A DNA stretch of 57,519 nucleotides from Chthonomonadaceae bacterium. Its GTDB lineage: Bacteria > Armatimonadota > Chthonomonadetes > Chthonomonadales > Chthonomonadaceae. Shown here piece by piece: positions 1 through 54,097 of the stretch (position 1 is its first letter; the number at the start of each line of letters is the position of its first letter). Both the position numbers and the translations under genes were made by a program. The DNA lies in the NCBI GenBank assembly GCA_035650735.1, contig DASRGZ010000123.1:1-57519 (forward strand), given 5' to 3'. Below the pieces are notes generated by a model. That model was not told the origin of the DNA and ran no database searches. It saw nothing but the letters and a program-made list of their open reading frames with translations.

Positions 1-302
1 CCGTTCCCCACTGCCAGGGTCGGCGCTACAATGGTTCGGGTCACTGCCAGGGTCGGGCCTGCAATAATTCGGCCCTCCGCCTTGCGACACCTTACGGCCC
101 TACTGCGTTCGCTTCGCTCACAGGGAAGGGGGGGACCCGACCTGAGATGGTTGCGGCCCTCACCTCCTGTCCCCCTCTCCCACGCTGCGGGCGAGGGGGA
201 ACGGAGAAGCCAGGGTTTGCCTCTGCCTGCACAGGCAGAGAGTCTCGCCCACGTAGGTGGGCAGCAGGCCGTAGGCCCCACAGCGGCAGGGTTTAGCCTG
301 CC
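1..302. repeat. Mosaic of REP-like hairpin modules containing two nested 45-bp units (10-97)
   Basis: Modules CCCTCACC..CCCCTCTCCC..GGG(A/C)GAGGGG, CTGCCTGCACAGGCAG, GCCCACGTAGGTGGGC and GGCAGGGTTTAGCCTGCC recur at 27849-28020, 45673-46011 and 53791-54097. Confidence 0.9.
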
Positions 303-346
303 AGGTAAGCAAGCTGTACTTACCTATCCTCTGAGGGGATCAGGTT

Positions 347-1363
347 TTACAGCCCCTTTTGGGCCAGGAAGTGGATCAGGTCGGCGATGCGGCAGGAGTA
401 GCCCCACTCGTTATCGTACCAGGACAGGACCTTGACCATGTTGCCGTCCGTCACCATCGTCTCCTGAGCATCCACGATGGAGGAGCGCGGATCGCCGGCG
501 TAGTCGCTGGAAACCAGTGGCTCATCGCTGACGCCCAGATAGCCCTTCATGCGCCCTTCGGCGGCTCGACGGAAGGCGTCGTTGACGGCCTCCTTTGAGA
601 CCGGCTTCTCGGTTTCCACAACCAGGTCTACCAGGGAGACGGTCGGGGTGGGGACGCGCAGCGCCAGGCCGTTAAGCTTGCCCTTCACCTCCGGGATGAC
701 CACGCCGAGCGCTTTGGCGGCGCCGGTGCTGGTGGGGATGATGTTCTGGCCAGCGGCGCGGGCGCGGCGCGGATCCTTGTGCGCCTGGTCGTTGACCTTC
801 TGGTCGTTGGTGTAGGAGTGCACCGTGGTCATCAGGCCGCTCTTGATGCCGAACTCGTCCTGAAGCACGCGCGTGATTGGCGCCAGGCAGTTCGTGGTGC
901 AGGAGGCGTTGGAGATGATCCGATGCTTGATTGGGTCGTACTTATCCTCATTGACGCCCAGGACGAGGGTGAGGTCCTCGTTCTTGGCGGGCGCGGAGAT
1001 AATGACCTTCTTGACCGTGGGCGCATGGAAGTGGGCCTGCGCCTTTTCCGCATCGGTGAACAGGCCCGTCGACTCTAGAACGATCTCGACGCCCTGCTCG
1101 TCCCAGGGAATCAGGGCTGGGTCTTTCTGGGCGTAGACGTAGATCTTTTTGCCGTTGATGATAAAGTCTTTGTCTTCGGCCTTGACCTCGCCCTCGAACT
1201 TGCCGTAGTTGCTGTCATGCTTGAACAGCAAGGCGTTGGTGGCGGCGTCGGTCAAGTCGTTGATGGCGACGACTTCGATGTCGTTGGGGTAGTACTCCAG
1301 GATGGCGCGCAGGGACAGGCGTCCGATGCGGCCAAACCCGTTAATGCCAACTTTCACAGCCAT
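347..1363 (-). CDS. gap: Type I glyceraldehyde-3-phosphate dehydrogenase
   Basis: [10 protein letters not shown], catalytic [16 protein letters not shown]; start moved to ATG 1363 (MAVKV) downstream of GAGGAGG. Confidence 0.98.
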
Positions 1364-1600
1364 TGTCGGTGGGTAGCCTCCTCGCAAAGCGTTGACAAAA
1401 CGTGCGGGTGTATAGAGAGCGGAGCGGGGCGCGAGCGCGCACTCCGGTACACATTAAAATAAGCAGGGCGCGAGCGGGCGGCGCAGAGTATCGGAAAACG
1501 CGCCCGATACGCGCCGCAAAAGGCCGCGCCTTGCAATCCATGCATACTCTGCATCCAATGCGACAGATTGCCTTTGTTCGCACGCTTGATCTTCCGTTCT

Positions 1601-1630
1601 ATTCTAGCATTTTTCCGGAAGGGGCGTCAA
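1601..1630 (-). promoter_or_regulatory. Putative sigma70 promoter of gap
   Basis: Minus strand TTGACG-18 bp-TAGAAT with extended -10 TG. Confidence 0.55.
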
Positions 1631-1647
1631 CGGCGCGAGGCGTTCCC

Positions 1648-2895
1648 TTATCGGCTCTCTCTAAGGAAGCGTTCGGGGCGGTAGGGGGCTAACAGGGGCG
1701 AGGGGCGTCCGATCACCATCTCCTCGGCCAGCAGGCGTGCCAGCAGCGGGCCGAGCGTAATGCCGCTGTGCGTCACGGCCATATAGACACCCTTCAGGCC
1801 GGGGATCTCGCCGACAATCGGCAGGCCGTCGGCGGGAACCGGGCGCACGCACACCCGCGCCGCCAGGCTTCCCATCAGGGCTTCGACCGGCAGGTTGGGG
1901 AGGGCCTGCGCCGCCCGCCGCAGCAAGGCAGCCGGGACTTCCGGGGGGAAAACGAAATTAGCCTCTCTGGGCGCGCTCTCCCGGAGGGTGCTGGCTGCCG
2001 GGTGCGTGTCGCCCCGCACTTCCCGGCTCTCTGAGATAAGGGCATCGGCGTCGTCGGCGCCAAGCAGCAGGCCGCCGCCGGGCGTGGGGCGCAGATGCAG
2101 GCCGCCGGCATCGGGCGGGTAGAGAACGCGCTGCGCCTGTTCCGGCGCAGATCCCGGCGGCGTCTCGACCAGCAGGCCCGGAACCGGCCGCACGGCAAAG
2201 CGCGCTGCGTCGGTCGGGTTGCCGGTGATCTGGGCCAGGAGTGCAGGCGTCTGTGCGCCGGCAGTCAGGACCAGCCGGCCCGTGGCGATGCGCCCCTCCG
2301 GCGTCTCCACCGTGGAGATAGCCATAATCAGGCCGCGCGTAAATCCGGTGGCCGGGCAGTATTCGCGTATATCGCCGTTGCGTTCGCGCGTCTGCTCCGT
2401 AAAGAACCGGATCAGGCGCGGCGTCTCCAGCCACTTATCCGCCGGCGCAAACAGCCCCTCCGCGCCCTCCCGCTCCGGAGACGCAAAATTGGCCTGCGGC
2501 TCCAAGGTCTGCATCTCCGCCGCATTAAGCAGGGCGACCGGATAGCCCCAGCCCTGAAGGCGGACGGCGCGCTGCCGCAGGCGCTCACGGCCCGCCTCGT
2601 CCGCGCCACCGGCCCAGAACAGCGATCCGCCCCCATGCAGCCCGATCCGTTCGGCGCTCCACTCCGCCGCCAGGTCATCGTAGCAGGCCAGGCCCCGGGC
2701 GTTCAGGCGGTGATAGGTTTCGTCCTCGTGCTTGGCGGTGGCGTTGATCCAGGCGAAGCTGCGCCCGGTCGTGCCGCCTCCCAGCGCATGGGCCTCCAGC
2801 AGCGCCACGCGCACTGTGCGCCGGCTCAACTCCCAGGCCAGCGCCGCGCCTAGAACTCCGCCGCCGATGATAACGACATCCGTCAGATCAGGCAT
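1648..2895 (-). CDS. FAD-dependent oxidoreductase (DAO/glycine oxidase-like)
   Basis: N-terminal VVIIGGGVLG FAD motif; C-terminal RPVPADGLPIVG and HSGITLGP. Confidence 0.85.
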   Translation of the reverse strand: MPDLTDVVIIGGGVLGAALAWELSRRTVRVALLEAHALGGGTTGRSFAWINATAKHEDETYHRLNARGLACYDDLAAEWSAERIGLHGGGSLFWAGGADEAGRERLRQRAVRLQGWGYPVALLNAAEMQTLEPQANFASPEREGAEGLFAPADKWLETPRLIRFFTEQTRERNGDIREYCPATGFTRGLIMAISTVETPEGRIATGRLVLTAGAQTPALLAQITGNPTDAARFAVRPVPGLLVETPPGSAPEQAQRVLYPPDAGGLHLRPTPGGGLLLGADDADALISESREVRGDTHPAASTLRESAPREANFVFPPEVPAALLRRAAQALPNLPVEALMGSLAARVCVRPVPADGLPIVGEIPGLKGVYMAVTHSGITLGPLLARLLAEEMVIGRPSPLLAPYRPERFLRESR

Positions 2896-4090: not shown

Positions 4091-4103
4091 AAAGATAACC
4101 TCT

Positions 4104-4128: not shown

Positions 4129-4138
4129 CTATTTTTGG

Positions 4139-12570: not shown

Positions 12571-12576
12571 CGCCCC

Positions 12577-13902: not shown

Positions 13903-14212
13903 GCCGGGCGCTGAAAGTGCCCGTCTGTAGGGCGGCTATGCCGCCAACCGTCCTGCGGACGGGAAAACGGGCCTATCGGCAAGTGGCTGCCTTCGTAGAG
14001 AGGGAAGACCCTTCCGCAACGGGGCGTCCGCCAGTCGCAAGGCAGAACCGTGCCGCCAGGCGGCGGGGTGTGGCAAGGTGTCGCAAGGCGGAGGCAGGGG
14101 CCGTACCCTTGCCGACCCTGGCAGTCCGTTGAGGCCCGACCCTGGCAGTGGTAGCGCCGTCCCTTGCAGTCGCTTGGCCGCAGGCCCTAGAGACGGGTAA
14201 TTTATTGCCCGG
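13903..14212. repeat. REPIN-like palindromic element interrupted by a 136-bp cluster of 45-bp units (14035-14170)
   Basis: Arms match the uninterrupted copy at 32057-32191. Confidence 0.88.
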
Positions 14213-27686: not shown

Positions 27687-27848
27687 TCTCTTGCTCCTCC
27701 ACACTCGGTCGCTGGCGAATGCCTGCGCCGTTGGCAATAAAGTCCTTCCACACAACCCGGCAATATTCTCAAAATATCGGGCCGCGACCCTAAAGATCAG
27801 GCAAAAACCCGAATCACTACCAGGAAATGGAGCAAGACGAATGCTCGC

Positions 27849-28020
27849 GGCAGGCTAAACCCTGCCGCTGTGGGGCCTACGGCCCGCTGCCTGCCTGCGC
27901 AGGCAGAGAGTCTCGCCTACCTGCGTGGGCGGAACGTTCTGCCTACGCAGGCAGAGGCAAACCCTGGCTTCTGCTCTCCCCTCTCCCGCAGCGTCGGGAG
28001 AGGGGTTAGGGGGTGAGGGC
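27849..28020. repeat. REP-like mosaic without 45-bp unit
   Basis: Same modules as 156-302 in opposite orientation. Confidence 0.88.
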
Positions 28021-32056: not shown

Positions 32057-32191
32057 GCCGGGCATTGAAAATACCCGGCTAGAGGGCGGCTGCGCCGCCA
32101 ACCGTCCTTCGGACGGAACACCTGGCTTGGCTGGGCGTCCGCCAGGACGCTTGGCCGTTAGGCCCTAGAGCCGGGTACTTTCAGTGCCCGG
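32057..32191. repeat. REPIN-like palindromic element (intact copy)
   Basis: 30-bp inverted arms (26/30) CCGGGCATTGAAAATACCCGGCT../..AGCCGGGTACTTTCAGTGCCCGG. Confidence 0.88.
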
Positions 32192-33982: not shown

Positions 33983-34097
33983 TGACCTAACCCCCCGGCC
34001 CCCTTCCCTAATACGTCGCTTCGCGACAGGGAAGGGGGCCGGGGGGTTAGGTCATCCCCTCTCCTGTTCTTGGGAGAGGGAACTAGAGGGTGAGGGC
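33983..34097. repeat. Two REP-like hairpins; the first is a perfect 27-bp inverted repeat
   Basis: TGACCTAACCCCCCGGCCCCCTTCCCT (33983-34009) with 34028-34054; then CCCCTCTCC..GGAGAGGGG..GGTGAGGG. Confidence 0.9.
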
Positions 34098-39727: not shown

Positions 39728-40169
39728 ATGGATGGCATGTTCTCCTTATTCTGGATTTTCTTCGCGATCGTTTTCCTGCTTATCATCGGGACTTTCCTTA
39801 CCGTGCTCGTCAAGGGGTAGTGTCCCTCTACAGAGTTGATAAGGTCATCGGCGACGAAGTATCAACTCTCTATGGGTACACTACCCGTCAAGGGGATTGG
39901 GGAATGGGCCTCCAATAACCAGAAGCCTGTGGAAACCGTCCAGGCGCGTGTGGTTGCCAAGCGCACCAACGTCAGTGGCTATTGCCGGAATAAATCAGAC
40001 CGGCAGCAGCACTTCGACTTCGTATTATGTCACCTTCGAGTTTAACGGTGGACCGCGACAAGAGTTTAGGGTTGCCGGGCAGGAGTATGGCCTCCTGGCG
40101 GAAGGGGATGCCGGAGAGCTTACCCATCAAGGCACGCGCTACAAGGGATTTGAGCGGCGTATATCCTGA
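39728..40169 (+). pseudogene. DUF2500-family gene disrupted by a MITE and a frameshift
   Basis: N-terminal TM..LVKG|GIGEWASNNQKP..ARVVAKRT; then in another frame YYVTFE..EYGLLAEGD..QGTRYKGF. Confidence 0.85.
39816..39885. mobile_element. 70-bp MITE, IS1-like GGTAGTG ends, 8-bp TSD
   Basis: 26-bp TIRs (22/26); TSD CGTCAAGG at 39808-39815 and 39886-39893. Confidence 0.92.
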
Positions 40170-40234
40170 GGCCGGCAACACGGGCAGTATAACCGTAGAG
40201 TAGAAGCAGCCTGCGGGTTAGGGCGGAGGAGTAC

Positions 40235-41602: not shown

Positions 41603-41704
41603 TACCATGGGGGCCATTCGGATAGAGTGTGAGAGGCCAGGAGCAATGCGCTTGGATTTTGAACAAGTCCTAGCAATGAGATCGGCGGCTCGAAGGGAAA
41701 GGAC

Positions 41705-42436
41705 ATGATGCTAAACCTTGCGTTCGATGCTCCTCTCGCGACCGCGGTCATCGCGGCCATCCATCACGGTGATGTCGAAGGGCTGAAGCGTCTGCTCGTT
41801 GAAAATCCCGGCCTGGCGACGGCGAGAATCGTTGCCGCCAACGGAGGCGAGCGCTCTCTTCTTCACATCGCGACCGACTGGCCGGGACACTTTCCCAACG
41901 TTGCTGCGACTATCGCCGCGCTGATCGAGGCTGGAGCGGAGGTCAATCCGCCCATGAGCGATCCGCCCAGCGAAACGCCCCTCCATTGGGCGGCAAGCAG
42001 CAATGACGTGGAGGCGATTGATGCCCTGCTCGACGCTGGGGCGGACATCGAGGCGCCGGGCGCGGTTTTCACCAATGGTACTCCGATGTCGGATGCCGTG
42101 GTGTTCGCCCAATGGAAAGCCGCACGGCGGTTGCTTGAGCGCGGCGCGCGGACGACGCTGTGGCAGGCGGCGGCATTGGGCCTCTTAGACCGTGTCGAGG
42201 CGGAGTGCGCGGCTCACCCTGCGCCCTCGGTGGACGAGATTACCAACGCCTTTTGGCACGCTTGTCGGGGTGGGCAACAGGAGACGGCGCGGTATCTTCT
42301 TGAGCAGGGCGCGGACCTGAACCGCATCGTGCATGGAGGCCAAACGGCGCTACAGGCGGCCCAGGAGAGCGGCAACGAGGCATTGGTGACTTGGTTACGC
42401 AGCCTCGGGGCGAAGGAGGCCGCCGAGTTGCAGTGA
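41705..42436 (+). CDS. Ankyrin-repeat protein
   Basis: RSLLHIA, ETPLHWAAS..LLDAGADI, YLLEQGADLN, QTALQAA. Confidence 0.9.
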   Translation: MMLNLAFDAPLATAVIAAIHHGDVEGLKRLLVENPGLATARIVAANGGERSLLHIATDWPGHFPNVAATIAALIEAGAEVNPPMSDPPSETPLHWAASSNDVEAIDALLDAGADIEAPGAVFTNGTPMSDAVVFAQWKAARRLLERGARTTLWQAAALGLLDRVEAECAAHPAPSVDEITNAFWHACRGGQQETARYLLEQGADLNRIVHGGQTALQAAQESGNEALVTWLRSLGAKEAAELQ

Positions 42437-42530
42437 TTTGGCGTGACGGAGGCACGCCCTTATCCGTTCGATGGATTGACATCCGCCCTCCGCGCCGAGA
42501 GTGTATCAGGTCTGTTTTTGAGGTGAGTGC

Positions 42531-43412
42531 ATGGCAATGCGATCGACGGGCGCCGCGCTGCGGGAGCGTTTGAAACAGGGGACGCTCGTGCTGCCCGGCG
42601 TCTTCAACGCGATCACGGCGCAGTTGGCGCAGCAGGCCGGCTTCGAGGCGCTCTATCTGAGCGGGGCCGGCGTGACCAACAGCCTGACCGGGTATCCCGA
42701 CATCGCCCTGCTGACCCTGACCGAGATGGCCCAGCAGGCCCGCTACGTCGCCCGCGCCGTCTCTCTGCCCGTGATCGCCGACGCCGATACCGGCTATGGC
42801 GAAATTCTCAACGTGGCGCGCACGGTCGAAGAGCTTGAGCACGCCGGACTGGCTGGCCTGCACCTGGAAGATCAGGTCGCGCCCAAGCGCTGCGGCCATC
42901 TGGAGGGCAAGCAGGTCATCCCGCCCGGCGAGATGGCTAGAAAGATCCGCGCCGCCGTGCGCGCCCGCTCCGACCCCGATTTCTTCCTCATCGCCCGCAC
43001 CGACGCCCGCAGCGTTCACGGCCTACAGGACGCCATTGACCGCGCCAAGCGCTACCTCGACGCGGGCGCGGACGCCATTTTCCCCGAGTCGCTGCAAAGC
43101 GCCGACGAGTTTGCCGCGTTTGCCGCCCAAGTCCGCGCGCTGCTGCTTGCCAACATGACCGAATTCGGCAAGACGCCCTATCTGGGCGTGGAGGAGTTTG
43201 CCCGGCTCGGCTACGCGATGGTGATTTTTCCCATGACGGCGTTTCGCGTGATGATGAAGGCGGCGCGCGAGGCGTATGAGGAATTAAGGCGGACGGGGAC
43301 GCAGGTCGGATTTCTGGAGAAGATGCAGACGCGGCAGGAGCTCTATGAGCTGATCCGCTACGCAGATTACGAACGGTTCGATAGGGAGATCGCGGAGGAG
43401 GATGCTCCGTGA
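42531..43412 (+). CDS. prpB: 2-methylisocitrate lyase
   Basis: YLSGA, DADTGYG, EDQVAPKRCGH, IARTDA, LANMTEFGKTP. Confidence 0.95.
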   Translation: MAMRSTGAALRERLKQGTLVLPGVFNAITAQLAQQAGFEALYLSGAGVTNSLTGYPDIALLTLTEMAQQARYVARAVSLPVIADADTGYGEILNVARTVEELEHAGLAGLHLEDQVAPKRCGHLEGKQVIPPGEMARKIRAAVRARSDPDFFLIARTDARSVHGLQDAIDRAKRYLDAGADAIFPESLQSADEFAAFAAQVRALLLANMTEFGKTPYLGVEEFARLGYAMVIFPMTAFRVMMKAAREAYEELRRTGTQVGFLEKMQTRQELYELIRYADYERFDREIAEEDAP

Positions 43413-43439
43413 GAGCGTCCTCCCCGTGCGGAGAAGACG

Positions 43440-44570
43440 ATGATGACTACTACCTACAGTCCGGGGCTGGAAGGCGTGACCGCCGGGATTTCGGCCATCT
43501 CGGAGGTCAACGCCGAGCGCAACATGCTGATCTATCGCGGCTACGACATCCACGACCTTGTGGAGCACTGCACCTTTGAGGAGGTTGCCTACCTGCTGCT
43601 GTTCGGCAAACTGCCCAACCGGCAGGAGTACGATGCCTTCCGGCAGCGTCTGGCCACCGAGCGCGCCGTGCCGGAGGGCATCTACGATCTCTATCGGCGC
43701 CTGCCCTCCGACGCGCACCCGATGGATACCCTCAAGGCGGCGGTGGCCGTCCTTTCGATGTTCGACCCGGACTACACGCAAAACACGCATGAGGCCAACC
43801 AGAACAAGGCGATGCGCCTCCTGGCCCGCATCCCAACGCTGGTGGTTAATGGCTATCGGATCACCCAGGGCCTGCCGCCCATCGCGCCCGATCCCTCGCT
43901 GTGTCACAACGCCAACTTCTTCTACATGCTGACGGGCAAGCCGCCCAACGATCTATTCGGCCACGTCTTCAACGTTACCCAGATCCTCTACGCCGAGCAC
44001 GGCTTCAACGCCTCCACCTTCGCTGCACGCGTCACCGTCTCCACGCTCTCCGACCTCTACTCCGGCGTCGTTTCCGCCATTGGAACGCTGAAGGGGCCGT
44101 TGCACGGCGGGGCCAACGAGGCGGCGATGGAGATGCTCCTGGAAATCGGCGAGCCGTCGAAAGCCGCCGAGTGGGTGCGGAACGCCCTGGCGCAGAAGCA
44201 GAAGATCATGGGCTTCGGGCATCGGGAGTATAAGAAGGGCGACGAGCGGGCCAAGATCGTCAAGCAGTACGTCATGGAGCTTGGAAAATACGTGGGCAAC
44301 ACGCGCTGGCAGGAGATGTCCCAGATTATCGAGGACGAGATGCTCCACGCCAAAGGACTCTATCCCAACGTGGATTTCCCGGTCGCCAGCGCCTACTATC
44401 TGATGGATATTCCCATCCCGCTCTACACGCCCATCTTCGTGATGAGCCGGATCACCGGCTGGTGCGCCCACATCATCGAGCAGTTGGACAACAACCGCAT
44501 CATCCGGCCGCACAGCGAGTACAACGGGCCGCGCGGCCTCCAGGTGGTGCCGATGGAGGCGCGCGACTGA
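43440..44570 (+). CDS. prpC: 2-methylcitrate synthase / citrate synthase
   Basis: YAEHGFNASTF, GPLHGGANE, MGFGHREY, PNVDF; follows prpD and prpB. Confidence 0.88.
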   Translation: MMTTTYSPGLEGVTAGISAISEVNAERNMLIYRGYDIHDLVEHCTFEEVAYLLLFGKLPNRQEYDAFRQRLATERAVPEGIYDLYRRLPSDAHPMDTLKAAVAVLSMFDPDYTQNTHEANQNKAMRLLARIPTLVVNGYRITQGLPPIAPDPSLCHNANFFYMLTGKPPNDLFGHVFNVTQILYAEHGFNASTFAARVTVSTLSDLYSGVVSAIGTLKGPLHGGANEAAMEMLLEIGEPSKAAEWVRNALAQKQKIMGFGHREYKKGDERAKIVKQYVMELGKYVGNTRWQEMSQIIEDEMLHAKGLYPNVDFPVASAYYLMDIPIPLYTPIFVMSRITGWCAHIIEQLDNNRIIRPHSEYNGPRGLQVVPMEARD

Positions 44571-44577
44571 GGGCTTA

Positions 44578-44668
44578 GAGCGTCTAACAAACCCGTTCTC
44601 CTTCTCCCTAGCAGGGAGAGGGCCGGGGTGAGGGTAGAAGCCCTACAGCCAAGTTTCGTTAGGAACTC
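44578..44668. mobile_element. 91-bp MITE, IS5/IS1031-like ends, TTA TSD, REP hairpin cargo
   Basis: TTA|GAGCGTCTAACAAACC ... GTTTCGTTAGGAACTC|TTA; homologous to outer element at 52593-52788. Confidence 0.88.
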
Positions 44669-44673
44669 TTAAT

Positions 44674-45672
44674 ATGGCTAGCGACGTCTTCAGGGCTATC
44701 GTCGTGGATAAGGCGGACGGCCAGACGCAGGCATCTCTGCAGGAGATGCCGCTGGCCGCGCTGCCGGAGGGCGACGTGCTGGTTTCCGTGGCCTACTCCA
44801 GCCTCAACTACAAGGATGGGCTTGCCGTTACGGGGCAGGGCAAGGTGATCCGCCGCTATCCGATGGTGCCGGGAATCGATCTGGCCGGGACGGTGGAGCG
44901 GTCGGACTCGCCGCGCTTTCAGCCGGGCGATCAAGTTATTCTCACTGGCTGGGGCCTTGGCGAGCAGCACTGGGGCGGCTATGCGCAGAAGGCGCGCGTC
45001 CAGGCCGACTGGCTGCTGCCGCTGCCGGAAGGGCTGAGCCTGAAGCACGCGATGGCGCTGGGCACGGCGGGGCTGACGGCGATGCTGTGCATCATGGCAC
45101 TGGAAGCGCACGGCGTCCGGCCAGAGGGCGGCGAGGTCGTGGTGACGGGCGCGGCGGGAGGCGTGGGCAGCGTGGCCGTAGCGCTGCTGGCGCGCTATGG
45201 CTACCGTGTGGTCGCCTCGACGGGGCGGCAGGCCGCGCATGCGTACCTGCGATCCCTGGGCGCTCAGGATATTCTGGATCGCAGCGTGCTCTCCGCGCCC
45301 TCGGAGAAGCCGCTGGAGTCGGCGCGCTGGGGAGGCGCGGTGGATACGGTCGGCGGCGACACGCTGGCGGGGCTGCTGCGAACGATGGGCTACGGCGGCT
45401 GCGTGGCGGCGTGCGGGGTGGCTGGAGGCAGCGCCCTGCACACCACCGTCTTTCCCTTCATCCTGCGTGGGGTGAGCCTCATCGGGATCGAGTCGGGGCA
45501 GTGCCCGCAGGAACGGCGGCGGGAAGCCTGGGAGCGGCTGGCGCGCGCCCTTCCGGCAGAGACCTTAGAGCGCATGATGCAGGTTGTGCCGCTCGATGCC
45601 GTTTTCGATCTCAGCCAGGAGATTTTGCAGGGGCGCATCCGGGGCCGCGTCGTCGTGGATGTGAATGCGTGA
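44674..45672 (+). CDS. acuI: Acryloyl-CoA reductase AcuI/YhdH (MDR family)
   Basis: YSSLNYKD, PGIDLAG, GTAGLTAML, TGAAGGVGS, PFILRGV. Confidence 0.88.
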   Translation: MASDVFRAIVVDKADGQTQASLQEMPLAALPEGDVLVSVAYSSLNYKDGLAVTGQGKVIRRYPMVPGIDLAGTVERSDSPRFQPGDQVILTGWGLGEQHWGGYAQKARVQADWLLPLPEGLSLKHAMALGTAGLTAMLCIMALEAHGVRPEGGEVVVTGAAGGVGSVAVALLARYGYRVVASTGRQAAHAYLRSLGAQDILDRSVLSAPSEKPLESARWGGAVDTVGGDTLAGLLRTMGYGGCVAACGVAGGSALHTTVFPFILRGVSLIGIESGQCPQERRREAWERLARALPAETLERMMQVVPLDAVFDLSQEILQGRIRGRVVVDVNA

Positions 45673-46011
45673 CCTAACCCCCCCGTTCCGGCAGGCTAAA
45701 CCCTGCCGCTGTGGGGCGCAGAGCGCCCGCCGACTGCCAGGGTCGGCGCTGCAACGGTTCGCGCCACTGCGAGGGTCGCAACTGCGCTCGCTCGCTCCTC
45801 CGCCTAGCGACACCTGGCGACACCCTTGTGGGCTAGACTCTCTGCCTGCGCAGGCAGAGGCAAGCCCTGGCTTCTGTTCTCCCCTCCCCTAGAATTGGGG
45901 GAGGGGATGAACGGGTGGAGGCCGCTCCCCTCTCCCGCAGCGTGGATCGCAAGGCGGAGGGGCGAACCATTGTAGCCCCGACCCTGGCAGTAGGGGGCAG
46001 GGGGTGAGGGC
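45673..46011. repeat. REP-like mosaic with three 45-bp units (45733-45820 nested pair; 45947-45991 single, minus strand)
   Basis: Alignment by eye to uninterrupted modules at 170-302 and 27849-28020. Confidence 0.9.
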
Positions 46012-46054
46012 TTTAGCCGCTCCTAAGCTCGCAGGATGGGTGAGAGCAAGAGAC

Positions 46055-48355
46055 ATGTTAAACGAGAAGAGCGTGACTGGAAAAGCGGTCGTGATCGGGG
46101 CGGGGACGATGGGCGGCGGGATCGCGGCCCAACTGGCCAACGCGGGCTGGCAGGTGCGCCTGCTCGATGTGCCCGGCCCGGACCCGAGCGATAAGAAGAC
46201 GCGCAATCAGATCGCGGCGGCGGGGCTGGATCGCGTACTCAAGAGCCGCCCGCCGCTGCTCTACCTGCCAGAGTTTGCCGAGCGTATCCGCGTTGGGAAC
46301 ATAGCCGACGATCTGGAGAGCCTGCGCGACGCCGATTGGGTGGTAGAAGCGGTGGTGGAGAAGATGGAGGTCAAGCAGGCGGTCATGGCCCAGATCGCCG
46401 CGCACGCCGGCCCGGAGACCATCCTCAGCAGCAACACGAGCGGCCTGAGCCTCCGCGAGATGACCGCCGCGCAGAGCCAGGAGTTTCGGTCGCGCTTTCT
46501 CGGCACGCACTTCCTCAACCCGCCGCGATATCTGAAGCTTCTGGAGGTCATTCCGCTGGCCGAAACCCGCCCGGAGGTAACAGAGGGCTTTCGGCGCTTC
46601 GCCGAGCGCGTGCTGGGGCATCGCGTCGTGTTTGCCCGGGACACGCCCGGCTTTATCTCCACGCGCCTCTGGATCACGCACCTGCTGGATACCATTCACA
46701 CGGCCCTGGAACAAGGGCTGAGCGTGGAGGAGGTGGACTATCTCACCGGCCCGCTGATCGGACGCCCGCGCAGCGCCACCTTCCGCATGGCCGATCTGGT
46801 CGGGCTTGACATCATCGCCGACGTGGCCCGCAACCAGTACGAGCGGCTGCCGCAGGACCCCTATCGCGACCGCCTGCGCCTGCCCGACATCCTCGACTAC
46901 CTATTGCAGGAAGGCAAGACGGGCGAGAAGAGCGGCGCGGGCTTTTATTGGCGCCAGGGCAGTACCCTGATGGCACTCGATCCACAAACGCGCCAGTATC
47001 GTCCCCGTCAGGAGTTCCGGCTAGAGGCGGTCGAAGCGCTGTCTCGGCTGCCGCTCTCGCAGCGTTTTGCGGCCCTGCGCCAGCATAACCAGGAGCGGTG
47101 GGGGCAGTTCTTAAACGCCGTGCTGGACTCTTTAAGCGCCTATGTGGAGCAGGTCGCCCCGGAGATAGCCGCCGACGTGCTCTCCGTGGATCGGGTGATG
47201 CGCTGGGGCTTTGGCTGGGAGATGGGGCCGTTCGAGATCATCGCGTGCCGACGCGAGGCCGCCGACGCCGCCCCGCGCTACTACAGCGGCGCCGGCCGGG
47301 AGCGCATGTACCGCGTCTTTGGGCAGGGCGCGCTCCAGCCGATGCCCTCGGAGCCAGAATACATCTGCCTGGCCGACCTGAAGGCGGCAGGCAAAACGAT
47401 CCTGGATTCGGAGGTCGCCTCCCTGATCGACCTGGGCGAGGACGTGGCCTGCCTGGAATACCATACCAAGATGAACACGTTCAACCCGGCGCTGGTCGCC
47501 TTCGTCCATCAGGCGCGCGAACGGGCGGAACGGGACTTCGCCGCGCTGGTCATCGGCAACCAGGGGCCGCACTTTTCGGCAGGGTACGACCTGAACCTGT
47601 TTCTGGAGACGATGGCGGCGGAGGATTGGGGCCGGCTGGATGCGCTGCTCCATGACGTGCAGTACGCCTTCCTGGGCTTGAAGTATGCGAAGATGCCGGT
47701 CGTGGCGGCGGTGCATGGCTACACGCTGGGCGCGGGCTGCGAGGGCGCGCTGCACTGCGCGGCCCTGCAAGCGGCCCCGGAACTCTACATGGGACTGCCG
47801 GAACTCAATGTGGGCGTGATTCCGGGGGGCGGCGGAACGAAGGAGATGCTGGCGCGCGCCATGGCCGATTGGGACGGCAGCGGCGACCCGTTTCCGCGCG
47901 TGGAGCAAGCGTTTGACCTCATCGCGTTTCCGAAAAATTCCAGCAGTGCCGAGGAGGCGCGCAAGAGGGGCTTGCTGCGGCCCACGGACGGCATTTCCCG
48001 CAACCCCGACCGCCTGCTGTTTGAGGCTAGAGCAAGAGCGCTCGGGTTGGCGAACGCGGGCTATGCGCCGCCCGTAAAGGAAACTATCTGGGTAGGAGGC
48101 GAGGAGACCCTGGCGCGGCTGCGGCTGAAAATCCACTGGCAGTTTCGGGCTGGCGCCATCAGCGCGCACGACCGCTTGATTATGGACAAGTTGGCGTTTG
48201 TGCTGAGCGGGGGCAATCTGCCCTACGCGCAGGAGGTAAGCGAGGACTATCTGCTGCAACTGGAGCGCGAGGTCTTTGTGGCGCTGGCCCACGAGCCGAA
48301 AACCGCCGAGCGGATGCGCCACGTACTCGCCACCGGCAAACCGTTGAAGAATTAG
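46055..48355 (+). CDS. 3-hydroxyacyl-CoA dehydrogenase / enoyl-CoA hydratase (FadN-like)
   Basis: GAGTMGGGIA, EAVVE, SNTSG, THFLNPPRY; C-terminal crotonase FSAGYDL, GAGCE, PELNVG. Confidence 0.93.
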   Translation: MLNEKSVTGKAVVIGAGTMGGGIAAQLANAGWQVRLLDVPGPDPSDKKTRNQIAAAGLDRVLKSRPPLLYLPEFAERIRVGNIADDLESLRDADWVVEAVVEKMEVKQAVMAQIAAHAGPETILSSNTSGLSLREMTAAQSQEFRSRFLGTHFLNPPRYLKLLEVIPLAETRPEVTEGFRRFAERVLGHRVVFARDTPGFISTRLWITHLLDTIHTALEQGLSVEEVDYLTGPLIGRPRSATFRMADLVGLDIIADVARNQYERLPQDPYRDRLRLPDILDYLLQEGKTGEKSGAGFYWRQGSTLMALDPQTRQYRPRQEFRLEAVEALSRLPLSQRFAALRQHNQERWGQFLNAVLDSLSAYVEQVAPEIAADVLSVDRVMRWGFGWEMGPFEIIACRREAADAAPRYYSGAGRERMYRVFGQGALQPMPSEPEYICLADLKAAGKTILDSEVASLIDLGEDVACLEYHTKMNTFNPALVAFVHQARERAERDFAALVIGNQGPHFSAGYDLNLFLETMAAEDWGRLDALLHDVQYAFLGLKYAKMPVVAAVHGYTLGAGCEGALHCAALQAAPELYMGLPELNVGVIPGGGGTKEMLARAMADWDGSGDPFPRVEQAFDLIAFPKNSSSAEEARKRGLLRPTDGISRNPDRLLFEARARALGLANAGYAPPVKETIWVGGEETLARLRLKIHWQFRAGAISAHDRLIMDKLAFVLSGGNLPYAQEVSEDYLLQLEREVFVALAHEPKTAERMRHVLATGKPLKN

Positions 48356-48373
48356 GCCCTCGTCCCGAACAGA

Positions 48374-48410
48374 CCTCACCCCCAGTCCCTCTCCTTGAGA
48401 AGGAGAGGGG
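48374..48410 (+). repeat. REP-like hairpin
   Basis: CCTCACCCCCAGTCCCTCTCCTTGAGAAGGAGAGGGGG. Confidence 0.8.
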
Positions 48411-48432
48411 AGATTCGAACCAATTCTACATT

Positions 48433-49935
48433 ATGTCTTCTCAAGATGTATTGGTGGCGAGGATGCGCGAGACGGTAGGACGGTACGGCCTGTTTGCGCC
48501 GGGTCAGACGGTGGTGGTCGGCGTGTCGGGCGGACCGGACTCGACGGCCCTGCTGCACGCCCTGGCCGGGCTGCGCCAGGAATGGAAGCTTACGCTGGTC
48601 GCCGCCCACTTCAATCACGGCTTTCGCGGCGTCGAGTCGGAGGCCGATGCTGAATATGTCGCAGCGTTGTGCGCCCGACTGGAGGTGCCCTGCCGTATTG
48701 AGCGCGCCGATGTGCCCGCCGCGCGCCGCCGCCTGCATCTTTCCGCTCAGGAGGCCGCCCGCAGCCTCCGCCACGCCTTCCTGCGCCGCGTCGCCGGAGA
48801 GGAGGGCGCGGAGCGCATTGCCCTGGCCCACACCCGCGATGACCGCATCGAGACGGTTCTGCTCAACCTCCTGCGCGGCACGGGCCTGGAGGGGCTGAGC
48901 GGCTTCCCGCCCGTCCATTTTCCTCTTGTGCGCCCGCTCTATGATGTAAGCCGCGCGCAGGTGGAAGCCTACTGCGCCGCCCATGTCCTCCACCCGCGCC
49001 GGGACTCTTCCAACGTCAACCTCGATTATCGCCGTAACCGTATTCGGACGGAACTGCTTCCCTATCTGGCTGCGTACTACAATGAGAAAGTTGACCACGC
49101 GATTTTACGAATGGCCGACCTCGCCGCCGCCGATAATGAAGTACTGGAAGGGCTGGCGGCGGAGGCGTTTGCGCGTGTAGCGTGTGCGCAGACGGAAACG
49201 CAGGTAACGCTGGATGCCGCTCTCTTGCGCGCGCAGCCCATCGCGTTGCAGCGGCGCGTGCTGCGGCAGGCGATAGCGCGCGTGCGCGGCCATTTGCAGC
49301 ATATCGGTCTGGAGACGCTGGATCGCGCTCTGGAAGCGGTCGCGCAGGGGCGAAAATGGCAGGTCACGCTGCCGGCTGCGGAGGTCGGCGCCGTGCGCCT
49401 GTGCTGCGACGAGGCGGCGGTGCAGGTTGTGCGCGCAGCCGCTCCCGCCATTCCGTTGCCCTGGCGGTGCGATCTGGCCGTTCCCGGCCGCACGGAACTG
49501 CCGCAGGCCGGAATGGCGGTGGAGGCGTGGCTCTGTCGGACGGGCGCGGAGGCCGCGTCCCTGGCGGCGCAGACGGGCGCGCTCGTTGGCGCGGGCAGGG
49601 GGCCGCTCCTGGCGCTCTTCTATCGGAGCGACGTGGCCCTGCCGCTGGTTGCGCGCTCCTGGCAGCCGGGCGACCGCATGCGTCCGCGCGGGCTGGGCGG
49701 TAGCAAAAAGCTGCAAGACCTGTTCACCGACCGCAAGATTCCCGCCGCGCAGCGCGCACAGATGCCGGTGATTGTGGACGCAGAAGGGCGCATCCTGACC
49801 GTCCTCGGCCTGGCGCTCGACGAGCAAACTCTGCACCCCGCCGATGCCGCCCTGAAGGAGAACGACCCACGCCCGCCCGGCGAGGAGATTTTACTGTTGC
49901 GCGCGGTGCCGCTGGACCCACAGGCCGGCTGTTAG
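48433..49935 (+). CDS. tilS: tRNA(Ile)-lysidine synthetase
   Basis: SGGPDS PP-loop, AHFNHG, AHTRDD..ET, RNRIR, C-terminal KKLQDLF. Confidence 0.95.
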   Translation: MSSQDVLVARMRETVGRYGLFAPGQTVVVGVSGGPDSTALLHALAGLRQEWKLTLVAAHFNHGFRGVESEADAEYVAALCARLEVPCRIERADVPAARRRLHLSAQEAARSLRHAFLRRVAGEEGAERIALAHTRDDRIETVLLNLLRGTGLEGLSGFPPVHFPLVRPLYDVSRAQVEAYCAAHVLHPRRDSSNVNLDYRRNRIRTELLPYLAAYYNEKVDHAILRMADLAAADNEVLEGLAAEAFARVACAQTETQVTLDAALLRAQPIALQRRVLRQAIARVRGHLQHIGLETLDRALEAVAQGRKWQVTLPAAEVGAVRLCCDEAAVQVVRAAAPAIPLPWRCDLAVPGRTELPQAGMAVEAWLCRTGAEAASLAAQTGALVGAGRGPLLALFYRSDVALPLVARSWQPGDRMRPRGLGGSKKLQDLFTDRKIPAAQRAQMPVIVDAEGRILTVLGLALDEQTLHPADAALKENDPRPPGEEILLLRAVPLDPQAGC

Positions 49936-50017
49936 GCCGTCGGCAAACAGAGCGGACGCGATAGCGTAACATCTCTTGCTACGCGCACCATAGCATACCG
50001 GTTGGGTGAATTTTGGT

Positions 50018-50046
50018 TTGCCGTCCGTAAATCGGTATGCTATAAT
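50018..50046 (+). promoter_or_regulatory. Putative promoter of ftsH
   Basis: TTGCCG-17 bp-TATAAT with extended -10 TG. Confidence 0.65.
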
Positions 50047-50112
50047 AGGGTACCGACGCTAGACTTACCGGAACGACCGAGGCTGCCGCTGGCCGGACCG
50101 GAGGAGGTTGCT

Positions 50113-52077
50113 TTGAAAAGTGGAAACAACGGATCACGCATCCTGATCCTCATAGCCATCATCGCCCTGATCCTGGTGGCGCTGAACTCGAACTTTCTCA
50201 AGGGCTTTGCTGCCTCCAGCGAGACGCTCCCCTACAGCGCTCTGCTGACCAAAATTGACCAGAACCCGAGCAGCCTGACCGGACTGGCCTTTGAGAAAGA
50301 TGTCCTGACCGGGCGTTACACCAATGTGGAGAAGGGCGCGATGCCCGGCAAAGAGGGGCAGCAGTTTAACTCCGTGCTGCCGGATTCCGGCGAGGCGCGC
50401 AGCAAGCTGATTGATAAGCTTCACGAGAAGGGCATCCCCTTTGAGTTCCGAAAGCCGTTCCTGAGCGATTGGATGCAGACCGTGCTCTCCATGGTCCTGC
50501 TGCCGGTGATGTTCATCGCCATCTTCTGGATCTTCTTCATCCGGCAGGCGCAGTCCGGCGGCAACCAGGCGCTCAACTTTGGGCGCAGCCGTGCCAAGCG
50601 CATGACCGACTCGGTGCCCAAAGTCACCTTTGACGAGGTCGCCGGCGTGGAGGAGGCCAAGCAGGAGCTCCAGGAGATCGTTGAGTTCCTCAAGAACGCC
50701 AAGAAGTTTCAGGCGCTCGGAGCCAAGATCCCCAAGGGCGTGCTGCTGCTGGGACCTCCCGGCTGCGGCAAGACGATGCTGGCGCGGGCCGTCGCGGGCG
50801 AAGCGGGCGTTCCCTTCTTCCATATCTCCGGCTCGGACTTCGTGGAGATGTTCGTCGGCGTGGGCGCCAGCCGCGTGCGCGACCTGTTCGACACGGCCAA
50901 GGCCAACCGACCCTCGCTCATCTTCATTGACGAAATTGATGCGGTGGGCCGCCAGCGCGGCGCGGGCCTGGGCGGCGGCCATGACGAGCGCGAGCAGACC
51001 CTCAACCAGTTGCTCGTCGAGATGGACGGCTTCGACCCGAACGCAGGCGTCATTATGATCGCGGCGACCAATCGTCCCGACGTTCTGGACCCAGCGCTGC
51101 TGCGTCCGGGCCGCTTCGACCGGCGCGTGGTGGTAGATGCGCCCGACATCGTGGGCCGCAAGGCCATCTTCCAGGTGCACCTGCGCGGCAAGCCGCTGGA
51201 GGACGACGTCAACGTTGAGACGCTGGCCAAGCTTACTCCCGGCTTTACCGGCGCCGACATCATGAACGTCGTCAACGAGGCGGCGATCCTGGCGGCGCGG
51301 CGCGATAAGAGCAAGATCGCTATGAACGAGTTCGACGAGGCCCGCGACCGCGTGCTGATGGGCCCTGAGCGCAAGACGCGCATGAACTCGGAGCGCAAGC
51401 TGCGCGTGGTGGCCTACCACGAGTTGGGACACGCCATCGTCGCGGCCAAGATACCCAACGCCGATCCGGTCTACAAGATCACGGTCATTCCGCGCGGCAT
51501 GAGCGGAGGCGCGACCTGGTATCTGCCCAAAGAGGAGAGTCTGCGCACCAAGCAGGATATGCTCGACGACATCACGGCCTCGCTCGGCGGGCGCGTCGCG
51601 GAGGAGCTGGTCTTCAGCGATGTGACCACCGGCGCGGTGAGCGACCTCGACCACGCGACCGACCTGGCGCGGGCGATGGTCTGCGAATACGGCATGAGCG
51701 ACCGGCTTGGCCCGCTGCGCCTGGGCCGGCGACACGGCAATCCGTTCCTGGGCCGCGACCTGATGGAGGACCGGGACTACAGCGAGGATATTGCCAAGGC
51801 GATTGACGAGGAGGTCCGCGCGTTCATTGACCAGGGTTACGCCCGAGCGCGTGAGATCCTGATGGAAAACCGCGCCAAGATGGACGAGATCGCCGAGATC
51901 CTGTTGGAGAAGGAGACGCTGACGCGCGAGGAGTTCCTGGCGCTCCTGAACGGCGAGGCGACGGCGGATGACATTCGCCGGGGCCAGTTGACCCCGCCGC
52001 CGACCACGGGCCTGACCACTCCGGTGGAGACGGAGCCGCCGCGTATCCAGACGCGCCTGCGCCCCGAACCGGCGTAA
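50113..52077 (+). CDS. ftsH: ATP-dependent zinc metalloprotease FtsH
   Basis: Two TMs; [44 protein letters not shown] 50113 after GGAGGAGG. Confidence 0.97.
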
Positions 52078-52102
52078 CGATCCTTCAACCTGACGCTAAA
52101 CT

Positions 52103-52141
52103 CAGCCCGCCAACATTATGTTGGCGGGCTGTCTTATTTTC
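52103..52141 (+). terminator. Rho-independent terminator of ftsH
   Basis: CAGCCCGCCAACAT-T-ATGTTGGCGGGCTG followed by TCTTATTTT. Confidence 0.8.
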
Positions 52142-52157
52142 GAAGCAAAATGCTCGC

Positions 52158-52187
52158 TTGACAGTTAATTGTCCGGTATGTTATTCT
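52158..52187 (+). promoter_or_regulatory. Putative promoter of protease islet
   Basis: TTGACA-18 bp-TATTCT with extended -10 TG. Confidence 0.6.
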
Positions 52188-52592
52188 CGTTCGCACTGTT
52201 GCCAAGTAAGTTCCATTCAAATTGCAGAGAAGGAAACGAAAGGCCGTGCCAACCTACAGCCGAGCGAATACCGACCTGCTCCAGGCTGCCACGCAGAACA
52301 AAACCGAATTCCTCAACAGGCTGTTTGGGGGCTGCGCCCCTGCGGCGTCCGGTGCGGCAGGGACAGACCTCAGTGTCGTACCGGAAGGCAGCAACATTGT
52401 CGGCGTAGGGTATGAAGCGAAAAGCACCGAAGGCGCTATGGTGGAGGGCGAGATCGCAGTACGTATCTACGTCCGATCCAAGCTGTCCCTGACAGAGGCG
52501 CCTGTGGATGAACGGGTTCCAGCCGACATCAACGGCACTCCCACGGACGTCATTGCGGGCGGAGATGTGACGGCTCTCGTGCGTCCGACTAA

Positions 52593-52788
52593 GAGCGTCT
52601 AACAAAACCGTGCTCTTTCCCTGCAAGGCAGAGGGTTGGGGTGAGGATAGAGCCTTACACCACGTTTTGTTAGGTAACCCAAGTTGCTACCTAGGAACAC
52701 GTTTGAGAGAGAATCGCTCTGGAAACCGGCTTTTGCATCACCGTTTGCCTTCTCGAAGAGGCAAGGTAGCAACTTGAGTTAGGTACTC
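52593..52788. mobile_element. IS5/IS1031-like MITE (87 bp without the nested element), TAA TSD
   Basis: TAA|GAGCGTCTAACAAAAC ... GTTTTGTTAGGTACTC|TAA after removing inner element. Confidence 0.88.
52677..52779. mobile_element. 103-bp IS982-like MITE nested in the right TIR of the outer MITE
   Basis: TIRs ACCCAAGTTGCTACCT / AGGTAGCAACTTGAGT (15/16); TSD TAGGTA at 52671-52676 and 52780-52785. Confidence 0.9.
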
Positions 52789-53508
52789 TAAATAGGGCGT
52801 GTCTGTAGGACATTTCAACATCACTGCCGGGACTTTAGACTGCCGCATCCAAATTGCAAGCGATCCTGGCGGCGAGTATATTCTCTCGAACAATCATGTT
52901 CTGGCTGACACCAATGCGGGCCTCAAAGGCGACGACATTATGGAACCAGGGCCCTATGATGGTGGAACAGCGCCCATCGCCCGGTTGGAAGATTTCGAGC
53001 CTATTCAATTTCTGGCTCCAGGCGTCATTCCTCCACCTATTAATCAGATGGATGCGGCTATTGCGAAAGTCATCAAGGCGGGCGATGTACTGCCAGATAT
53101 TTGGAAAAATCGGGCGTATCGTCAATCCGCCCGTACCCGCCGCTCTTTATCGGTCTGTCCGTAAACATGGACGCACGACACGGCATACAGTAGGCGTCGT
53201 CACAGATATCAGCGCCAGCATTCGCGTTCGATACGGCAAGCAAGTTGCCCCGTTCGATAACCAGATCGCGATTATTGGGGCAGGCGGTGCTTTTAGCTCA
53301 GGCGGCGACTCCGGCTCATTAATTGTGGATGCCGTGAACCTTAATCCTGTTGCCTTGCTCTTCGCGGGCGGCAGCACAACCTTCGCTAACCCAATTGGCA
53401 TTGTTCTCGCCCGCTTTAGCGCCACTATTCTCTAGCGAGCGCCGTTTCCAAGTCTTGGATTTTAACTAAAGCTGTGGTAAGATAGGGGTACAAGAGGAGA
53501 AAAAGGCC

Positions 53509-53730
53509 ATGACGCAGCTAAAGCCAGATTTACGAGCGGTTAAAGCAGCGGCGCAAAGCCAGTTCGGCCAGATTCCGGGCATAGAAGGTTTTGGAATCGG
53601 GGATGGCACGCTTGGCATCTATGTGCGCAATGCTGAAGTTCGCAACCAGCTTCCTCACGAATATCAGGGCGTGCCCGTAGAATTTGTCATCACCGGAGAT
53701 ATTGAGGCATACGCAACGGCTGCTTTTTAA
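53509..53730 (+). CDS. Small protein resembling the pro-domain of the upstream protease
   Basis: GAGGAG RBS; GIEGFGIG..LGIYVR..LPHEYQGVPVEFVITGDIEA aligns with NIVGVGY..VRIYVR..VPADINGTPTDVIAGGDVTA. Confidence 0.8.
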   Translation: MTQLKPDLRAVKAAAQSQFGQIPGIEGFGIGDGTLGIYVRNAEVRNQLPHEYQGVPVEFVITGDIEAYATAAF

Positions 53731-53751
53731 CGTTATCGGTGATACACCACG

Positions 53752-53787
53752 CCGCCTGCTAACCCCATGTTGGCAGGCGGTTTTGTT
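53752..53787 (+). terminator. Rho-independent terminator
   Basis: CCGCCTGCTAAC-CCCAT-GTTGGCAGGCGG followed by TTTTGTT. Confidence 0.75.
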
Positions 53788-53790
53788 GCA

Positions 53791-54097
53791 CCTGACCCCG
53801 GCAGGCTAAACCCTGCCGCTGTGGGGCCTAACGGCCCGCTGACTGCCAGGGTCGGGCCTACAACGGACTGCCAGGGGCGGCAGGGTTACGGCCCCTGCCC
53901 CCGCCTGGCCACAGCCCTCCGCCTTGCGACACCTACGCGGGCAGAATACCTGTTGACAACGCCAGGGGCATTACCATTACGTTCTATGGGCACTGCCTAC
54001 GCAGGCAGAGAGTCTCGCCCACGTAGGTGGGCGACGGGCGCTTTGCGCCCCACAGCGGCAGGCTAAACCCTGCCGCAAGAGAGGGCGGGGGGTTAGG
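53791..54097. repeat. REP-like mosaic (inverted doublet) with nested pair of 45-bp units (53842-53929)
   Basis: CCTGCCGCTGTGGGG ... CCCCACAGCGGCAGG inverted arms; shared modules. Confidence 0.9.

Follow-up and report, generated by a model that had tools for sequence, protein, structure and literature searches.

Elements of the IS200/IS605 family are known to insert 3′ of a fixed target of 4–5 nt and to keep every target base. Miniature inverted-repeat transposable elements (MITEs) are 70–300 bp long, carry terminal repeats of 15–30 bp and duplicate their target. Correia/NEMIS, ERIC and Nezha are listed as bacterial MITEs derived from DDE elements in the excerpt of PMC3733652 used here, which also describes a conserved GTAG or CGTC tetranucleotide at one palindrome end of repetitive extragenic palindromic (REP) sequences. 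The replicative unit of REPINs is an inverted doublet according to an excerpt of PMC3116915. R2Bm, a non-LTR retrotransposon of the silk moth, combines site-selective insertion with 2-bp staggered cleavage that results in a 2-bp target-site deletion (excerpt of PMC6895275). Here we describe an element of 45 nt that works most like REP/REPIN and IS200/IS605-type miniatures and yet fails their defining tests. It was noticed, in an earlier note based on the sequence alone, in a stretch of 57,519 nt (hereafter the window) that forms contig DASRGZ010000123.1 (contig C123 in our labelling) of GenBank assembly GCA_035650735.1. This assembly is a metagenome-assembled genome (MAG) of a soil bacterium of the Chthonomonadaceae (6.52 Mb, 224 contigs, 63% G+C, 97.6% complete), and the nearest protein relatives of the window are Chthonomonadaceae MAGs of the phylum Armatimonadota. 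The element is very probably a non-autonomous, end-defined mobile unit that enters a C-rich motif in one orientation and replaces two target bases.

The unit consists of ACTGCNAGGGTC, a hairpin of 21 nt and TCCGCCTNGCGA, extends from A1 of ACTGCNAGGGTC to A45 of TCCGCCTNGCGA, and is too small for any coding. Its edges are sharp across the 332 units of the genome in which exactly 21 nt separate the ends: conservation sets in abruptly at A1, stays high up to position 14, is high again over 32–45 and fades over 46–49. A length of 45 nt is found in 265 of 371 adjacent left-right pairs, and a 44-nt variant is common (31 of 371). Positions 6 and 41 vary freely and lie within a 6-bp subterminal inverted repeat (GCNAGG at 4–9, CCTNGC at 38–43), which stops 3 nt short of one tip and 2 nt short of the other. 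A central 5-bp stem, flanked by GGTC and TCCG, pairs positions 13–17 with 29–33 and is maintained by compensatory changes; pairs 15–31, 16–30 and 17–29 are paired in 91–96% of 212 distinct units, compared with about 50% after column shuffling, and each of the three pairs occurs in C-G, G-C and A-T forms. Support for the hairpin comes from covariation, because the folding energies of single copies are not significant (z from −2.1 to +1.6).

With its hundreds of short, GC-rich, imperfectly palindromic copies, which are intergenic, non-coding and presumably moved in trans, the element resembles the REP/REPIN-RAYT systems (RAYT, REP-associated tyrosine transposase), but its consensus has no GTAG or CGTC tag beside the stem. 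It is likewise similar to DDE-derived MITEs in being miniature, non-coding, multicopy and mobilized in trans, with inverted repeats near its ends. It differs from them in its length of 45 nt, in its 6-bp subterminal repeat and in deleting 2 nt. As it makes no duplication, it is not a MITE of the DDE type. The only inverted repeat is the 6-bp subterminal GCNAGG, and no long element with these ends was found.

Empty counterparts of the filled sites were sought in the whole genome by adjoining the 12 nt left of each unit (exact) and the 14 nt right of it (at most 2 mismatches) at offsets from −8 to +15. A paralogous empty-like site exists for 164 of the 332 units, and 129 of these have a modal offset of +2, which bears out the proposal of the earlier note that 2 nt are missing at the junction and nothing is duplicated. 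Target duplication is not supported, since an overlap-type modal offset is found in only 3 of the 164 units. The remaining 35 units show offsets of 12 (12 units), 10 (6), 4 (6), 3 (4), 0 (2), 6 (1), 14 (1) and −5/−6 (3); those of 10 and 12 arise from the comparison of segments with different ends, and those of 3 and 4 represent C runs, or one amplified composite that differs in its first two bases. The 129 units with offset +2 comprise 66 hosted by the element itself and 63 in other repeats, and they represent 44 flank classes, or 73 combinations when the hairpin variant is taken into account as well. The lost pair had been called a pyrimidine dinucleotide. This fits TT (55), TC (38), CT (15) and CC (9) but not GC (8), AC (3) and CG (1), while the second base is a pyrimidine in 128 of 129.

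The loss extends to at least 15 kinds of site. With the lost pair set between raised dots, examples are CCCCC·TT·CCCT, GCTG·CC·CACC, GCCAAGCG·TC·CTGG, TTGCT·GC·GGCT and GGCCT·AC·GGCC, and where the element is itself the target, the pair is lost either after position 25 (..ATGG·TT·CGG..) or after position 33 (..stem-CC·TC·CGCC). The four empty sites named in the earlier note (Table 1) read as it had claimed. An element-free relative of the same genus, 89% complete, served as an outgroup for empty sites. It keeps TT in 46 of 47 copies of the palindrome host family, and CCCCTCTCCCACG in all but about 4 of 100 copies among the matches listed (111 found) of another host family. As the outgroup copies keep both bases, the empty state is the older one and the filled sites have lost two bases. 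No target duplication is described for REPs in the excerpts of PMC3116915 and PMC3733652 either, which is a further likeness; a fixed 2-nt loss and exact self-nesting are not mentioned for REPs in those excerpts. The element also differs from a mini-element of the IS110/bridge-RNA type, in that it loses the core dinucleotide and its genome has no PF01548 gene.

Several element variants occur at one and the same site of a host family (at least six at CCCCC·TT·CCCT, several at two CT sites), which therefore records independent insertion events, and the same variant is also present at unrelated sites. Even when one event is counted per site class, the two-base rule holds at no fewer than 15 independent places. 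These data bear on an account with little or no transposition, in which a few founder insertions with a 2-nt deletion were followed by gene conversion and by amplification of host repeats. Such a history would explain why all 9 filled GCCAAGCG sites and all 6 filled TTGCT sites carry essentially one variant, each set clearly being one event amplified with its host, and the host-specific base after the element (CA, TC or CC, discussed below) would simply be inherited. It is nevertheless improbable, given that at least 15 unrelated site classes share the loss, that different variants lie at one site and one variant at unrelated sites, that segments with alternative ends occupy standard targets, and that the flanks common to sites are only 2–4 nt long.

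Nesting provides a second line of evidence. In 232 of 267 cases, the distance from an outer left end to the start of the inner one is 24, 25, 29, 32 or 33 nt. Where a unit has been split, its left (L) and right (R) modules are mirrored around the intact core: L29-core-R14 occurs 40 times, L25-core-R18 24 times and L33-core-R10 16 times. Double nesting is mirrored as well (L25,L33 followed by R10,R18, 5 times; L33,L25 followed by R18,R10, 4 times), and no crossed order is present among the 45 commonest arrangements listed. Judged from these arrangements, nesting is strictly hierarchical. The stems of interrupted hosts still match (GGGCC/(A)GCCC, GCCGC/(A)CGGC, GGGGC/(A)CCCC), and because these split stems differ in sequence, several different hosts must have been struck. 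In contrast to the inverted doublet of REPINs, the units are singlets or are nested in direct orientation.

Some mobilized segments are unbalanced. Core+R10 (55 nt, 14 copies), core+R18 (63 nt, 10 copies), L25+core (70 nt, 14 copies) and L33+core (78 nt, 4 copies) all lie in ordinary targets with ordinary junctions, and a 161-nt composite that includes a 30-nt foreign spacer has 12 copies, again with standard targets and junctions. On the simplest reading, the machinery would pick any left end and any right end and move the segment between them. The earlier proposal of a non-autonomous element moved in trans is upheld by this use of alternative left-end and right-end segments, by the non-coding size, by the many unrelated sites and by the hierarchical nesting. 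The 161-nt composite was seen on contigs C62, C63, C126, C147 and C171 of the genome, and four of the five examined contigs end inside it; its spacer finishes in bases similar to a right end, and a degenerate left end comes next. As a separate observation, T at variable position 6 (giving CTAGG) is found in 32 of 134 outer, older units and in 8 of 134 inner ones, an example being window positions 14159–14170. CTAGG is about 13-fold rarer than CCAGG genome-wide, and CCAGG to CTAGG is the change expected from deamination of a Dcm-type methylated cytosine.

Cutting out an element and rejoining its flanks would leave host units of 43 nt, or host repeats minus two bases. No 43-nt unit was found among 504 left-right pairs, nor any direct L33+R10 joint, and shortened host copies are almost absent (palindrome family, 1 of 61; GCTG·CC·CACC, 0 of 47; GCCAAGCG, 0 of 31, although one copy there has a single base). 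In the absence of scarred empty sites, spread is taken to be effectively copy-and-paste. This lack of donor scars would also fit reverse transcription of the R2-like, target-primed type, with which the 2-nt target deletion agrees (R2Bm, excerpt of PMC6895275). We regard that explanation as very unlikely, as no RVT_1 match is present in the 97.6%-complete assembly and both junctions are exact, with none of the typical 5′ truncations. R2Bm is moreover a eukaryotic element of several kb that encodes a reverse transcriptase and an endonuclease, in contrast to a unit whose ends are exact on both sides.

The target is recognizable on one strand. At 122 distinct non-self sites, the strand that is continuous with the top strand of the element is C-rich: 97 of these sites have C at −3, 92 have it at −2, 98 at +3 and 80 at +4, and a single A is found at each of −1 and +1. 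The resulting motif, roughly CC(S)·NY·C(N)CC, is present in other REP-like repeats and twice within the element, once after position 25, in the hairpin loop, and once after position 33, where the hairpin has its 3′ foot. Because the motif is asymmetric, the orientation of insertion is fixed; either strand can serve as the target, since the majority of hosts are palindromes whose 5′ arm is rich in C. The earlier note held that REP hairpins are targeted. Most targets do lie in other REP-like hairpin repeats or in the element itself, but the determinant looks like a C-rich motif on one strand rather than the hairpin as such.

These properties recall the IS608 type of IS200/IS605 elements: a hairpin stands at a set distance from exact cleavage points, spread is effectively replicative, and insertion is specific to strand and orientation, the C-rich strand always being continuous with the top strand, with no duplication. 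In contrast to IS200/IS605 elements, however, the unit has no fixed 4-mer target (no fixed tetranucleotide is found 5′ or 3′ of it at the 122 distinct sites) and loses 2 bases in 129 of 164 cases, and it has a single central hairpin rather than one near each end, with no guide-like covariation.

Intergenic mosaics of other REP-like families occur in the window at 160–305, 27848–27990, 33983–34054, 45689–45720, 45821–45906, 53799–53830 and 53993–54087. They include the palindrome whose arms measure 27 nt, together with a CCCTCACC..CCCCTCTCCCACGCTGCGGGAGAGGGG hairpin and a GGCAGGCTAAACCCTGCC hairpin block. The element-free genome of the same genus shares no fewer than two of these repeat families, in dozens to about 100 copies, and they are the main landing sites.

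Orientation also bears on the possibility of a double-strand enzyme, cut-and-paste or copy-and-paste, that acts on the GCNAGG inverted repeats and makes a 2-nt stagger whose overhangs are trimmed instead of filled. The 6-bp subterminal repeat at both ends and a deletion fixed at 2 nt in every site class are in keeping with such an enzyme, and the 2-bp stagger of R2Bm, which leads to a 2-bp target deletion (excerpt of PMC6895275), offers a parallel. Symmetric end-binding does not, however, predict a fixed orientation on an asymmetric C-rich target. The inverted repeats are themselves asymmetric in their distance from the tips, scarred donor sites are lacking and no candidate gene was found. We therefore consider a double-strand enzyme unlikely. 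Conservative site-specific recombination with a crossover of at least 2 nt was rejected, as the unit ends (AC.. and ..GA) are not repeats of one core.

The family is abundant in the host genome and scarce elsewhere. A genome-wide scan with the 45-nt pattern, as the earlier note had suggested, gave 298 matches compared with 0 for a reversed control. Among 68 genomes of the order, 343 copies were counted in the host genome, 6 in a genome of one other genus, 1 in a further genus and 0 in the same-genus genome, so that the 7 copies outside the host are confined to two of the 67 other genomes. In a phylum sample of 401 genomes, allowing 3 mismatches, only single matches were obtained in 14 other genomes, and the reversed control matched in 13. 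The 88-nt composite had no match in plasmid and phage collections, and no Rfam family was matched in the window. As many as 16 copies agree with one another at every one of the 45 positions. As copies are abundant in the host genome and nearly absent from the order and phylum samples, the family evidently represents a recent expansion in the host lineage. The single copy in the further genus (locus L004, contig C128:8017-8086 of genome G019) is a nested composite in the same host palindrome as in the window's genome, and the spacer family of 30 nt that comes next is also the same. Placed close to the end of an 8-kb contig of a 75%-complete MAG, it may reflect a binning error or a recent transfer.

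This distribution, and the metagenomic data, can be set against the view that the repeat is not mobile and is an artefact of the assembly or else a fixed repeat of a structural or regulatory kind. The host genome is a fragmented MAG in which contigs often end inside element clusters; these breaks, and the unremarkable folding energies, speak for such a view. Contigs from sequencing runs aligned to 40000–57519 stop at repeat clusters as well. Contigs from the independent assemblies of three other sequencing runs (aligned at 90% likeness or more) nevertheless agree beside the clusters, with 0–1 differences, even though they stop there, and the sequence of the window across both clusters (45733–45991) recurs without a difference in a separate metagenome contig. 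Hundreds of copies in unique contexts, and a close relative that has none yet shares the host repeats, also speak against this view. The data contradict it, and of the explanations weighed here we hold it to be the least probable.

A metagenome scan with a unique 20-mer adjoining the 45947 insertion returned one identical contig and one chance match. We rejected the reading of certain contig joints (e.g. 45945 to 45992 with GAG between) as empty alleles: their depth is 39–110, compared with about 13 for the organism, and the joints are therefore other copies of the host repeat. Among the contigs available, which are of the same strain, no single locus showed both a filled and an empty allele. 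Contig depth in four metagenome runs is 100–400 times that of neighbouring bins at window positions 50512–51095 and 53432–54015. The first of these bins is inside a long open reading frame (ORF; 50002–52077) and probably collects contigs of a conserved gene from other organisms; the second is a repeat cluster.

Our favoured overall account, to which we assign a probability of about 0.6, is a young, lineage-restricted family of non-autonomous elements defined by their two ends and moved by a trans-acting enzyme that reads one strand. In this mechanism, the enzyme would recognize the folded element and cut exactly at its two tips, the target would be opened at two points 2 nt apart, and the dinucleotide between them would be discarded. 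Each insertion adds the segment and removes exactly NY, with no duplication. As for the enzyme, the most likely choice, which we put forward only tentatively, is a single-strand enzyme of the HUH/Y1 type, or another that forms a 5′-phosphotyrosyl link on single-stranded DNA. It best fits an orientation that is fixed on an asymmetric target, a hairpin placed 12 nt from each exact tip, and replicative spread that leaves no scars. It may also be, though we hold this less likely than not, that the transposition chemistry is undescribed: strand-specific, end-defined and replicative, with an obligatory two-base swap and an adjacent change of C-to-T type. This would imply either an unrecognized family or a Y1/HUH enzyme that works in a new way, with two cleavages 2 nt apart.

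Several observations weigh against the favoured account. All filled/empty comparisons are between paralogous copies, supplemented with the outgroup consensus from the same-genus relative; orthologous empty sites were sought, but intergenic alignment with the same-genus genome is impossible because genes are only about 77–78% identical. The single-variant GCCAAGCG sites belong here, as do the fixed 4–5 nt target of IS200/IS605 elements and their retention of every target base. No covariation links the element's variable positions to the flanks (mutual information at most 0.17 bit), and there is thus nothing like the guide pairing of the IS608 type. Orientation shows no association with local GC skew, which is weak. 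Two further sets of findings, a systematic base change beside the junction and the outcome of the search for an enzyme, stand on the same side.

The base pair directly 3′ of the insertion is often altered, and the favoured model does not account for this. NY·CG targets read CA when filled, in 145 of 149 remnants of 10 nt (0 with CG) and in 193 of 201 remnants of 18 nt (3 with CG). The change from CG to CA is also seen at a non-self site, where GCTTGCCG·TC·CGCAGCCC becomes CACAGCCC. Intact units have TCCG at 34–37 in 302 of 317 cases and never TTCA at 26–29. CT·CC targets mostly read TC when filled (37 at one family; 33 versus about 5 at another), and at TT·CCCT targets CC is usually retained. 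The changes from CG to CA and from CC to TC both amount to a C-to-T change on one strand or the other. The outcome depends on the host site and not on the element variant, and carry-over of a donor flank was rejected for this reason.

Nor has a mobilizing gene been found. The earlier suggestion of a RAYT/HUH enzyme is no more than a guess. Y1_Tnp genes are present in the element's genome, as in REP systems, but none of its 3 matches has a unit within 3 kb and, in contrast to RAYT systems, no Y1 gene is flanked by units. Across the host genome and three others (G000, G001, G010 and G019, G000 being the window's genome), Y1_Tnp matches number 3, 6, 8 and 5, and the element-free relative has 6. 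Two Y1 (IS200-like) genes of the host (L001, C166:80092-80433; L002, C166:12640-12873) were read in translation: one is intact, with 166 aa and H-V-P in place of HUH, and in the other a proper H-I-H is present, although a frameshift splits the gene. The search for an ORF bounded by element ends, also proposed in the earlier note, yielded no long copy. Unmatched left and right ends at distances of 0.4–8 kb show no recurrent spacing that would mark an autonomous copy, and most ends that stand alone are truncated units or match by chance within genes.

Other enzyme families fare no better in the same four genomes. IS110-type genes (PF01548) number 0, 0, 1 and 1, and RVT_1 matches 0, 0, 2 and 0, both of the latter in one open frame of G010. 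Resolvase-domain matches number 4, 1, 2 and 1; a resolvase on contig C68 was rejected as the enzyme, as it is 18 kb from a truncated unit and not linked to it. No IS91-type Y2 gene (PF04986) was found in the host genome, a search that proves little as control genomes are equally silent. None of IS110, Resolvase, RVT_1, Y1_Tnp and Y2_Tnp tracks the element across the four genomes. As the assembly is 97.6% complete, the mobilizing gene may lie outside it.

Within the window, the five intact units read as previously described and are listed with their surroundings in Table 1. The earlier estimate of about 10 units at five loci was accurate: ten left ends were counted (7 exact, 2 with one mismatch and 1 real one with two), and all five loci are located between long ORFs. 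The left 12-mer ACTGCCAGGGTC has 7 exact occurrences and, with up to 2 mismatches, 15 occurrences compared with 5.97 expected, a number reached by 1 of 100 shuffles. The right 12-mer alone is not enriched in the window at 2 mismatches (9 versus 11.2 expected).

Table 1. Units of the 45-nt element and empty host sites in the window (lost or corresponding target pair between raised dots).
Position	Strand	Feature
10..42	+	Left 33 nt (left end and hairpin) of an older unit, later interrupted at its position 33 (module L33)
43..87	+	Intact 45-nt unit; one of 15 identical genome copies
88..97	+	10-nt right-end remnant of the split unit (CACCTTACGG); starts with CA where the intact end has TCCG
14035..14170	-	Multiply nested cluster: three left ends, several right-end remnants, intact inner unit 14081-14125
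14035..14170 (host site)	-	GCCAAGCG·TC·CTGGCGGA in a host repeat
45733..45820	+	Nested composite: left 33 nt 45733-45765, unit 45766-45810, 10-nt remnant 45811-45820; host ..GCCG·..·CACC
45947..45991	-	Intact unit on its own, within the C-rich arm of a hairpin host (CCCCT·CT·CCCACG, minus-strand reading)
53842..53929	+	Nested composite: left 25 nt 53842-53866, unit 53867-53911, 18-nt remnant (CAGCCC and right end) 53912-53929
53842..53929 (host site)		GCTG·CC·CACC
33983..34054		Empty copy of the host palindrome, 27-nt arms; target CCCCC·TT·CCCT at about 33999-34009
32140..32150	-	Empty copy of host site GCG·TC·CTGG
256..266	-	Empty copy of host site GCTG·CC·CACC
172..183	+	Empty copy of host site CCCCT·CT·CCCAC

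The window also contains two A+T-richer pairs of inverted repeats made of short tandem motifs, at 4091–4128/4500–4537 (GGATGAA type) and 8154–8182/8247–8275 (CAGGATT type). Both are intergenic and unrelated to the 45-nt element.

We know of no described bacterial transposition mechanism that readily explains a fixed two-base replacement with no duplication. In the literature searched, no bacterial element with a fixed 2-nt target replacement was found, though a similar rule may exist in the small repeats of cyanobacteria. The small dispersed repeats of Nostoc, reportedly presented by Elhai et al. in 2008 as very small, hairpin-forming and possibly mobile, belong to a different phylum and are unrelated in sequence; they may be the nearest precedent in spirit.

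The mode of insertion of very small bacterial repeats, i.e. REPs and their kin, is largely unknown, and clean comparisons of filled and empty sites are rare. The present family supplies more than 100 exact junctions, a record of insertion in the form of nesting, an element-free sister genome and simple end rules. A synthetic mini-element could be built for testing candidate enzymes. The two-base replacement, together with the change of the neighbouring base, is not known as a signature of bacterial transposases, so that either the enzyme would be new or a known one would work in a new mode. Genome engineers might also take an interest in an enzyme able to insert short segments, defined by their ends, at a short motif with no duplication.

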